A stretch of DNA of 64,000 nucleotides from Escherichia coli (GTDB taxonomy: Bacteria > Pseudomonadota > Gammaproteobacteria > Enterobacterales > Enterobacteriaceae). Under the pieces are notes generated by a model that was not told where the DNA came from, made no database searches, and worked only from the letters and a program-made list of their open reading frames with translations. How positions within the stretch are numbered: position 1 is the first letter of the stretch; the number at the start of each line of letters is the position of its first letter. The position numbers were made by a program, and so were the translations under genes. This document shows positions 13,471-24,164 of the stretch, piece after piece. The stretch lies in assembly GCF_003334385.1 (NCBI RefSeq), contig NZ_QOWN01000001.1; one strand, 5' to 3'.

Positions 13471-13760
13471 GGTTCTCTCCCTAAAAATCTGTCTGGCAGG
13501 GTAGCGATTTGTGCGCATTGTCACGATTGAGATTTTTTAAGGGGAGGGGAAATTGATAACTTGTAGTTATGTGAAATCGCTATTTTCTGTAGCAGAGATG
13601 CATTCTTCTGACTTCTTGTCTGAGAAAATGCATAAGAAAAAATAGGTTAAAACTGAGGGGGGAAAAGAAAGGTGCAATATTTAGCCATTGTGTTCACTGC
13701 ACCTGGACCTTGGCTTACGCATCGGGTGTCTCAATCAACAAAAAGAGTTTTTAGTTTCTG

Positions 13761-14585
13761 CTATTTCTTCTCTGTAATTTTTACACTGTTTTCCAACTGC
13801 TTGATGCTGACCTGCGGGGTCGGCAACTCCTCAGGCATGGTTCCGCCAAGTTCCTGAATGGTTTGCCTCACCTTGCGACCCACGTCAAAGTGTGTGGTGT
13901 TTGCTTGCTGTTTTGAATTCACGCCATCCCGCTTGAGTTTTTCTTCTGTTTGGGTAGCTCGAAAGAGATTAGCCGCCAGTTCTGTTGAACCCATATGATC
14001 CAGGATCTTCTGATTCTTTTTCAGCCCCTTCCGCTGATGAATAGCTTTCTGATCTAATCCACCATACAGCCCCTGGTAACCATGATTCTGAAATATGGCG
14101 AAATCAGTAGCTGTCGCTACCCCAGCTTGCTGTGCTGCCTCAACCAATTGTTTGTTATGTTCTTTCAACTCATTTCTCAGAAACAGACGCTTTTCGTCTT
14201 CACGAAGTTGCTTAAATGCTTCATCGTCAGCAAGCTCCTGCCGTCGGGTCTGGATAGCAAAATAAGTCTGCCCTGCCGCAATGACCGGTTTCGCAGGGTC
14301 GCCGTTTTGTACTACCAGGTAACAGGCATAGCGGGAGAGTACGATGTCTTTTAATGCTCTTTTGGCATTTGAGCCAATTTTGACCATATCGAGGATCTCC
14401 TCGAAATGGTCATCAATTGTGTGACCACTGTTCTCACAGGCTTCTTTGGCGCGCGTTAATACAGGTATAAAGTGACGATACTCTGAATAACCCAGTAGTT
14501 TCCCAAGTTGTCTTGCTGACCATTGTTCTGCTCCGTTTGCATTAATCAGTTTTATCTCTTCAAAAGGTTGATGATGTTCGTTCAT
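13761..14585 (-). CDS. dinD: DNA damage-inducible protein D
   Basis: ORF track 13761..14597; start at MNEHHQPFEEIKLINANGAEQW (274 aa); LexA box immediately upstream. Confidence 0.88.
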   Translation of the reverse strand: MNEHHQPFEEIKLINANGAEQWSARQLGKLLGYSEYRHFIPVLTRAKEACENSGHTIDDHFEEILDMVKIGSNAKRALKDIVLSRYACYLVVQNGDPAKPVIAAGQTYFAIQTRRQELADDEAFKQLREDEKRLFLRNELKEHNKQLVEAAQQAGVATATDFAIFQNHGYQGLYGGLDQKAIHQRKGLKKNQKILDHMGSTELAANLFRATQTEEKLKRDGVNSKQQANTTHFDVGRKVRQTIQELGGTMPEELPTPQVSIKQLENSVKITEKK

Positions 14586-14630
14586 TGCCCACTCCATGTG
14601 ATATCAATTGCAAAGAAAGTAAATCTGTAA

Positions 14631-14646
14631 CTGTATTTATATACAG
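14631..14646. promoter_or_regulatory. LexA (SOS) box CTGTATTTATATACAG upstream of dinD
   Basis: Palindrome CTGT-N8-ACAG with AT-rich centre, about 45 bp upstream of the dinD start. Confidence 0.8.
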
Positions 14647-14805
14647 TTGTGAGTATCTCACGTTCTCAGTGTGCTGGGCAAAAAAACATCGCAAAATCTG
14701 GAGCAGGCACGCAAAACAGAATTGAATGTTGCGGGGAAGAAAAATGCCGCTCTGTTTGAGTGGCGGCATTTGTGAAGGCGGAAAAGTAAGAATTGGCGTT
14801 ACGAG

Positions 14806-15669
14806 TTATTCGATGTTCTGAATCTGCTCGCGCATCTGCTCAATCAACACTTTCAGCTCGATGGCGGAGTTTGTCACTTCGGCATTGATAGACTTCGACG
14901 CAAGAGTGTTCGACTCGCGGTTGAACTCCTGCATCATAAAATCCAGACGACGACCAACCGCTTCTTTTTTCTTCAGAATGTTGTAGGTCTCTTTGACATG
15001 CGCTTCGAGGCGATCCAGTTCTTCGGCAACGTCAATTCGTTGTGCCAGCAGAACCAGTTCCTGCTCCAGACGGTTGTTTTCCAGTTGCACCTGAGCATCT
15101 TCCAGCTTCGCGACCAGACGCTCACGCTGCCATTGCAGGATTTCCGGCATATGGGAGCGGACTTTGACCACTTCGGCGGTGACGCCTTCCAGACGCTGCT
15201 CGATCAATGCTTTCAGTGCCTGACCTTCGGTTTCGCGCGCGACAATAAAGTCGTCCAGCGTACCATCCAGCGCCGCGAGAATTTCAGCGGCAATGGCGTC
15301 AAGATCCTGCTCCTGGGCTGCCATCACGCCCGGCCAGCGTAGAATATCAACCGGGTTGATTTCCCCTTCGTCACTCTGCATTTTTACCCAGTTCGCGGCA
15401 GTTACCAGCTGTTTAGCCAGTTTTTCGTTGAGGATCAGCTCACCTTGCGCGCTAACATCTGGCTCATAGCGCAGGGTACATTCCACTTTACCGCGCGTCA
15501 GGCGAGAACGAATACGCTCGCGAACGACAGGTTCAAGGCTACGGAACTGCTCCGGCAGACGAAAGTAAGTTTCCAGATAACGCTGGTTTACCGAGCGCAT
15601 TTCCCAGGTTGCGCTCCCCCATTCACCCTTGATTTCACGCCGGGCGTAGGCGGTCATACTGCGGATCAT
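14806..15669 (-). CDS. yicC: YicC-family stress-induced protein
   Basis: 287 aa, MIRSMTAYARREIKGEWGSATWEMRSVNQRYLE. Confidence 0.88.
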   Translation of the reverse strand: MIRSMTAYARREIKGEWGSATWEMRSVNQRYLETYFRLPEQFRSLEPVVRERIRSRLTRGKVECTLRYEPDVSAQGELILNEKLAKQLVTAANWVKMQSDEGEINPVDILRWPGVMAAQEQDLDAIAAEILAALDGTLDDFIVARETEGQALKALIEQRLEGVTAEVVKVRSHMPEILQWQRERLVAKLEDAQVQLENNRLEQELVLLAQRIDVAEELDRLEAHVKETYNILKKKEAVGRRLDFMMQEFNRESNTLASKSINAEVTNSAIELKVLIEQMREQIQNIE

Positions 15670-15795
15670 AGACGTTCCTGTTTATAAAAGGAGAGGTGGA
15701 AGGATTATAGCCATCGATGCCTTGTCAGGATAGGAATAACCGCCGGAAGTCCGTATAATGCGCAGCCACATTTGTTTCAAGCCGGAGATTTCAAT

Positions 15796-16512
15796 ATGCG
15801 TCCAGCAGGCCGTAGCAATAATCAGGTGCGTCCCGTTACCCTGACTCGTAACTATACAAAACATGCAGAAGGCTCGGTGCTGGTCGAATTTGGCGATACC
15901 AAAGTGTTGTGTACCGCCTCTATTGAAGAAGGCGTGCCGCGCTTCCTGAAAGGTCAGGGCCAGGGCTGGATCACCGCAGAGTACGGCATGCTGCCACGTT
16001 CTACCCACACCCGTAACGCTCGTGAAGCGGCGAAAGGTAAGCAGGGTGGACGCACAATGGAAATCCAGCGTCTGATCGCCCGTGCTCTTCGCGCGGCAGT
16101 AGATTTGAAAGCGCTGGGTGAGTTCACCATTACGCTGGACTGCGACGTGCTTCAGGCTGATGGTGGCACGCGTACCGCGTCGATTACGGGTGCCTGCGTG
16201 GCGCTGGTAGATGCGCTACAGAAGCTGGTGGAAAACGGCAAGCTGAAAACCAATCCGATGAAAGGGATGGTAGCCGCAGTTTCTGTCGGAATTGTGAACG
16301 GCGAAGCGGTTTGCGATCTGGAATACGTTGAAGACTCTGCCGCAGAGACCGACATGAACGTAGTGATGACCGAAGACGGGCGCATCATTGAAGTGCAGGG
16401 GACGGCAGAAGGCGAGCCGTTCACCCATGAAGAGCTACTCACCTTGTTGGCTCTGGCCCGAGGGGGAATCGAATCCATTGTAGCGACGCAGAAGGCGGCG
16501 CTGGCAAACTGA
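15796..16512 (+). CDS. rph: Ribonuclease PH, apparently full-length (238 aa)
   Basis: ORF track 15772..16512; start at [10 protein letters not shown]; frame runs uninterrupted to ...[14 protein letters not shown] and TGA at 16510-16512, a few nt before the pyrE attenuator hairpin. Confidence 0.9.
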
Positions 16513-24125: not shown

Positions 24126-24164
24126 CAGTATTCAGGTAGCTGTTGAGCCTGGGGCGGTAGCGTG
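24126..24164 (+). promoter_or_regulatory. JUMPStart element with ops site GGCGGTAG (24153-24160) in the waaQ operon leader
   Basis: cagtattcaggtagctgttgagcctggggcggtagcgtg read from sequence about 50-85 bp upstream of waaQ; ops is the known RfaH recruitment site. Confidence 0.8.

Follow-up and report, generated by a model that had tools for sequence, protein, structure and literature searches.

The SOS operator of dinD in an Escherichia coli contig: a single strong LexA box, already described, and its genetic context

Does the near-palindromic stretch in front of dinD in Escherichia coli serve as a LexA operator, is there one such operator or two, and what does its position tell about the start and the control of the gene? 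We considered these questions for a stretch of 64,000 nucleotides of contig NZ_QOWN01000001.1 (RefSeq assembly GCF_003334385.1), hereafter the window, which contains the E. coli yicG-dinD-yicC-rph-pyrE segment with dinD on the minus strand. The coding sequence of this regulated gene (13761-14585, minus strand, 274 amino acids plus stop) is annotated by RefSeq, and its product matches the NCBIfam equivalog NF008573 (DNA damage-inducible protein D) over residues 1-274, i.e., over its full length, with 488.1 bits against a cutoff of 242; a Pfam Bro-N domain occupies residues 10-105 at the N-terminus. It is part of the basics of the SOS response that LexA dimers seated on CTGT half-sites hinder RNA polymerase and that RecA filaments on damaged DNA trigger the self-cleavage of LexA. 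Our reading of the locus, to which we assign a probability of about 0.96, is that the near-palindrome at 14629-14648 represents a single high-affinity LexA operator, where a LexA dimer blocks RNA polymerase and from which damage-triggered LexA cleavage derepresses dinD; putative within this reading are the hexamers of the promoter, the place of the box with respect to the start point and repression by steric occlusion.

The core of the site, CTGTATTTATATACAG (14631-14646, minus strand), has the form CTGT-N8-ACAG, i.e., two half-sites for a LexA dimer. A pattern search revealed that this 16-mer, present exactly where the original prediction had placed it, is the sole CTGT-N8-ACAG within the 64-kb window. 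The bare pattern by itself is not significant: its chance expectation equals 0.61 copies per 64 kb, and at least one copy occurred in 45 of 100 shuffles. This expectation is what speaks for viewing the site as a chance AT-rich palindrome devoid of any regulatory role. The full 20-mer, however, tells otherwise. Located at 14629-14648, AACTGTATTTATATACAGTT differs from the consensus TACTGTATATATATACAGTA by no more than 3 mismatches, a degree of likeness that was reached in none of the 100 shuffles, and the 20-mer is thus significant. The designation of the box as a consensus one holds for the CTGT-N8-ACAG core, whose spacer is composed entirely of A/T, but not for the 20-mer, which departs from the full LexA consensus TACTG(TA)5CAGTA at 3 positions. 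On the strand of the gene, i.e., the minus strand, the operator reads AACTGTATATAAATACAGTT and is self-complementary at 18 of 20 positions. The site combines the features of E. coli-type operators: the CTGT-N8-ACAG inverted repeat, an AT-rich spacer and a match to the consensus at the level of validated operators.

For scoring we used a strand-symmetric position weight matrix (PWM), for which 17 LexA boxes of E. coli published in PMC3009722 Table 4, that of dinD excluded, served as the training set. With dinD left out of the training set, its 20-mer obtained 25.15 bits (25.6 bits against a uniform background), more than 13 of the 17 training operators; the scan proposed in the original prediction thus returned a score that is not low, as opposed to the 12.18 bits of the runner-up in the 64-kb window. 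As a control, the best site was taken from each of 300 first-order Markov random sequences of 64 kb. These maxima averaged 11.45 bits (sd 2.44), the largest being 20.69, and the dinD box lies above all 300 of them. No other LexA site stands out in the PWM scan of the window, where the next best (12.2 bits) is at the random level. A box that ranks among the best matches of the genome should keep dinD under tight repression in resting cells.

LexA binding in vitro was reportedly described by Lewis et al. in 1994. The comparison with the published dinD operator, also put forward in the original prediction, ended in identity. On the strand of the gene, positions 14651-14627 of the window read ACAACTGTATATAAATACAGTTACA, a 25-mer that equals letter for letter the K-12 dinD LexA box in PMC3009722 Table 4 and lies equally far from the annotated ATG, and the 16-mer is the one given for dinD in PMC2585105. 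The published K-12 box of dinD (pcsA, orfY), at 3,817,697-3,817,716 of MG1655, has the yicC and yicG neighbours in common with the window; counted from the start of dinD at 3,817,760, the MG1655 16-mer falls at 3,817,699-3,817,714. K-12 derivatives and the window share the whole 220-nt intergenic region between yicC and dinD with 100% identity, and the operator in the window shows no difference from the published one. Yet, the rph gene is of full length in the window (15772-16512, plus strand; RefSeq ribonuclease PH, with a 717-nt CDS in an identical strain), while it is truncated in MG1655; the window strain is therefore K-12-like at dinD but is not MG1655.

The SOS control of dinD through LexA is borne out by the identity with the published box, by a PWM score typical of strong operators and by LexA-dependent induction documented in the literature. 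AZT induces dinD 9.8-fold, with a 12-fold dependence on cleavable LexA (lexA3), and the heterology index of dinD, 2.2, is among the lowest of the regulon (PMC11228462 Table 1). The LexA dependence of dinD was confirmed by RT-qPCR in lexA(Def) and lexA3(Ind-) strains (PMC3009722), and dinD is included in a list of genes with known SOS boxes (PMC6590174). A 20-mer score exceeding every random maximum, a sequence identical to a published operator and LexA dependence in vivo effectively refute the notion of a chance palindrome. The closest counterparts of the dinD box are the strong single SOS boxes of umuDC and sbmC (CTGTATATAAAAACAG), whose 16-mer differs from that of dinD at one spacer position. 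All three belong to the class with the lowest heterology indices (2.1-2.8), each standing alone upstream of the respective gene. The dinD box differs from the other two in its flanks, AA...TT as opposed to TA...TA, at a cost of about 2.6 bits (25.2 vs 27.8). The SOS operator of dinD is real, correctly read, strong and already described. The significance of this beyond annotation is slight: a classical SOS operator was marked correctly, and it is recognizable from sequence alone.

Tandem or dual LexA operators exist at some SOS genes. This fact, together with an additional CTGT located only 2 nt from the 16-mer, could favor an arrangement in which the tetramer at 14625-14628 (plus strand; ACAG on the strand of the gene) nucleates a second, overlapping operator and two LexA dimers bind in front of dinD. 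The tetramer does exist, as had been pointed out, but it does not overlap the 16-mer, and it is positioned on the dinD-proximal side of the box, i.e., downstream in the direction of transcription, rather than upstream of it. The role of a second operator half-site that had been ascribed to it has to be abandoned. The partner ACAG expected 8 nt from the extra CTGT is absent, and the corresponding register scores -14.1 bits. In the alignment of divergent E. coli lineages, the extra ACAG is changed to GTAG or GTAA, whereas both half-sites of the main box are kept. Furthermore, two dimers at a 6-bp offset would clash. When all registers of 14612-14680 were scanned, only the main box was positive and every other register fell below -5 bits; the next-best PWM site of the intergenic region reaches 6.5 bits at 14672-14691. 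The dinD box therefore shares with tandem LexA operators the presence of an extra CTGT nearby, but differs from them in lacking a second complete box, and the extra tetramer falls in no scoring register and is not conserved. Tandem operators were rejected for the dinD promoter region, where the register scan and the polymorphism revealed no second complete scoring box. We consider the binding of two dimers highly improbable and conclude, judging by these sequence features, that dinD has one LexA operator only, next to a stray CTGT that would not be part of it.

As for the promoter on which this single operator would act, a relaxed enumeration of hexamer pairs in the intergenic region pointed to TTGCCC-18-TGaGATACT as the best pair, with 8 of 12 consensus positions matched. 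It consists of a candidate -35 (14676-14681, minus strand), which is invariant in the E. coli alignment, and a candidate extended -10 (14652-14660, minus strand) of weak consensus. A stricter scan of 14400-14900 for consensus promoters and terminators made no call, and the start-site supplements of Kim 2012 contain no dinD entry. With the above pair, transcription of dinD would start near 14645, which would place the box at about -3 to +17. The operator may also be real while its geometry differs, if RNA polymerase uses the TATAAA within the box (14641-14636) as the -10, so that LexA competes with it directly there and not over the start point. TATAAA matches TATAAT at 5 of 6 positions, is the only strong -10-like hexamer of the intergenic region and lies 17 nt from TTGCCC in a singleton deletion strain described below; yet, it does not end in the T of that hexamer, and none of the sequences located 16-18 nt upstream of it in the window (ACGTGA, AACGTG, GAACGT) makes an acceptable -35. 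We regard this geometry as unlikely and favor LexA acting over the start point, although the operator would overlap the core promoter with either candidate -10.

At 14735-14771 (minus strand), where AAAUGCCGC...GCGGCAUUU is followed by UUCUU, RNA folding revealed what is probably the intrinsic terminator of yicC, the gene upstream of dinD. The hairpin has a free energy of -12.2 kcal/mol (z = -4.26), and none of 200 shuffles was equally stable. It escaped the simple terminator scan, presumably on account of its predicted loop, which with 9 nt in the minimum-energy and 12 nt in the centroid structure is longer than the 8 nt allowed by that scan. The hairpin and the U-run probably end the transcription of yicC and insulate dinD from read-through; the LexA-controlled promoter would therefore be the main input of dinD. 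In undamaged cells, a LexA dimer would occupy both CTGT/ACAG half-sites and, with the box over or just downstream of the dinD start point, would block RNA polymerase by steric occlusion. Upon DNA damage, RecA filaments would bring about the self-cleavage of LexA, the operator would be vacated and dinD would be transcribed. A passage of PMC4849656, citing Uranga et al. 2011, names DinD among the proteins that ensure the removal of RecA filaments when RecA is no longer needed. SOS control fits a feedback role for DinD, since the protein is reported to help remove these filaments.

With respect to the start codon, the 16-mer is separated by 45 nt from the RefSeq ATG of dinD at 14585 (minus strand), in agreement with the predicted distance of about 45 bp. 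The box had further been taken to confirm the choice of this start, which it cannot do, because it precedes both in-frame ATGs, that at 14597 as well as that at 14585. The start at 14585 is to be preferred because of the GGAG positioned 6 nt upstream (14592-14595, minus strand), a Shine-Dalgarno motif read from the sequence, because of its use by RefSeq in two genomes and because of the alignment with the NCBIfam equivalog. A similar ATGGAG...ATG arrangement is found in two homologues (L017 and L021).

Within E. coli, a match to the intergenic region is present in 4,706 of 5,426 genomes. Because this entire region is 94-100% identical throughout the species, the conservation of the box is weak evidence of selection. 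A common T/C polymorphism occurs in the spacer, the box being either AAATACAG or AAACACAG; the half-sites remain intact, and the score still amounts to 23.3 bits. E. coli-type DinD alleles of 84-100% protein identity are preceded by the identical 20-mer. At least two classes of dinD alleles (about 84% protein identity) are found in E. coli behind a nearly identical promoter/operator region, which suggests recombination breakpoints inside dinD or just after its 5' end. In a single genome of the 5,426, that of APEC 16-1068 (L008 1628-1660, corresponding to 14645-14661 of the window), a 17-bp deletion takes away the left half-site together with the candidate -10, brings the score of the box down to 7.7 bits and leaves TTGCCC 17 nt from TATAAA. 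This deletion may render dinD expression independent of LexA; given its occurrence in only one genome, it represents either a mutation private to this strain or an error of the assembly.

Outside Escherichia, we examined a small sample of nine distant dinD homologues obtained from viral-contig and plasmid searches (58-80% identity; L016, L017, L021, L023, L024 and L025 among them), which come from viral contigs, Klebsiella pneumoniae, a Thiothrix plasmid and Neisseria. None of the nine carries a LexA-like site within 300 nt upstream according to the PWM, the best score being 6.6 bits. Since the sampled homologues are boxless, the box leaves no cross-genus footprint. Their genetic context varies: six are viral-contig loci with 59-80% identity, two of which adjoin terminase-like ORFs, the K. 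pneumoniae homologue is located downstream of ibpAB and that of the Thiothrix plasmid downstream of parAB. The boxless homologues are a lead rather than a result, in view of the small sample and of the LexA-type motif of Neisseria, which may be a different one. That LexA control is a recent, Escherichia-specific addition to a gene of mobile-element origin is a tentative proposal, to which we give slightly less than even odds. If it is true, the name 'DNA damage-inducible protein D', which annotation pipelines assign to the whole family, would have no basis beyond Escherichia and its closest relatives. The sampled relatives caution against reading damage inducibility from the name of the family.

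In E. coli itself, the box and the gene behave as one indel cassette, because some E. coli genomes, such as that of strain TUM14697 (L009 2750-3000 vs 13525-14805 of the window), are devoid of dinD between yicG and yicC together with the LexA box, and because dinD lies in a GC trough (42-48%, as compared with 50-57% in the flanks); the yicC terminator is missing from TUM14697 as well. This organization recalls the LexA-controlled accessory genes of prophages, e.g., the Gifsy dinI-antirepressor locus (PMC3121763), where a small accessory gene with an ancestry in mobile elements is likewise under the control of a LexA box that follows a terminator. DinD resembles such genes also in its Bro-N domain, in forming a low-GC indel cassette and in having relatives in prophages and phage satellites. 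In contrast to them, dinD is chromosomal and positioned between housekeeping genes, and its product is reported to act on RecA filaments and not on phage repressors. A further difference is that the sampled prophage-borne dinD homologues are without a LexA box, unlike the LexA-controlled genes of prophages.

Several other observations concern mobile elements. In E. coli JNEC-KY177 (L010 1-2990) and E1624 (L011 3700-6207), the 3' end of yicC (about 14806 of the window) or the region upstream of dinD borders on an integrase/Rha/HTH island or on phage DNA-ejection genes, which points to a hot spot where mobile elements integrate. Relatives of DinD with about 53% identity are a regular satellite gene in the Streptococcus satellite phages 'Javan' (hits H48-H62), and many phage records of Mycobacterium and Gordonia contain weaker matches. 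Judged by such matches, the DinD family appears widespread on mobile elements. In turn, a protein 100% identical to the present E. coli DinD is encoded in the 174-kb records of Campylobacter phages A18a and A11a (MG065686.1 and MG065691.1), most likely as a consequence of E. coli DNA in these assemblies. As for RNA elements in the 64-kb window, no tRNA genes were found, and the sole Rfam match at the gathering threshold is JUMPstart (RF01707) at 24126-24164 on the plus strand, with 55.2 bits.
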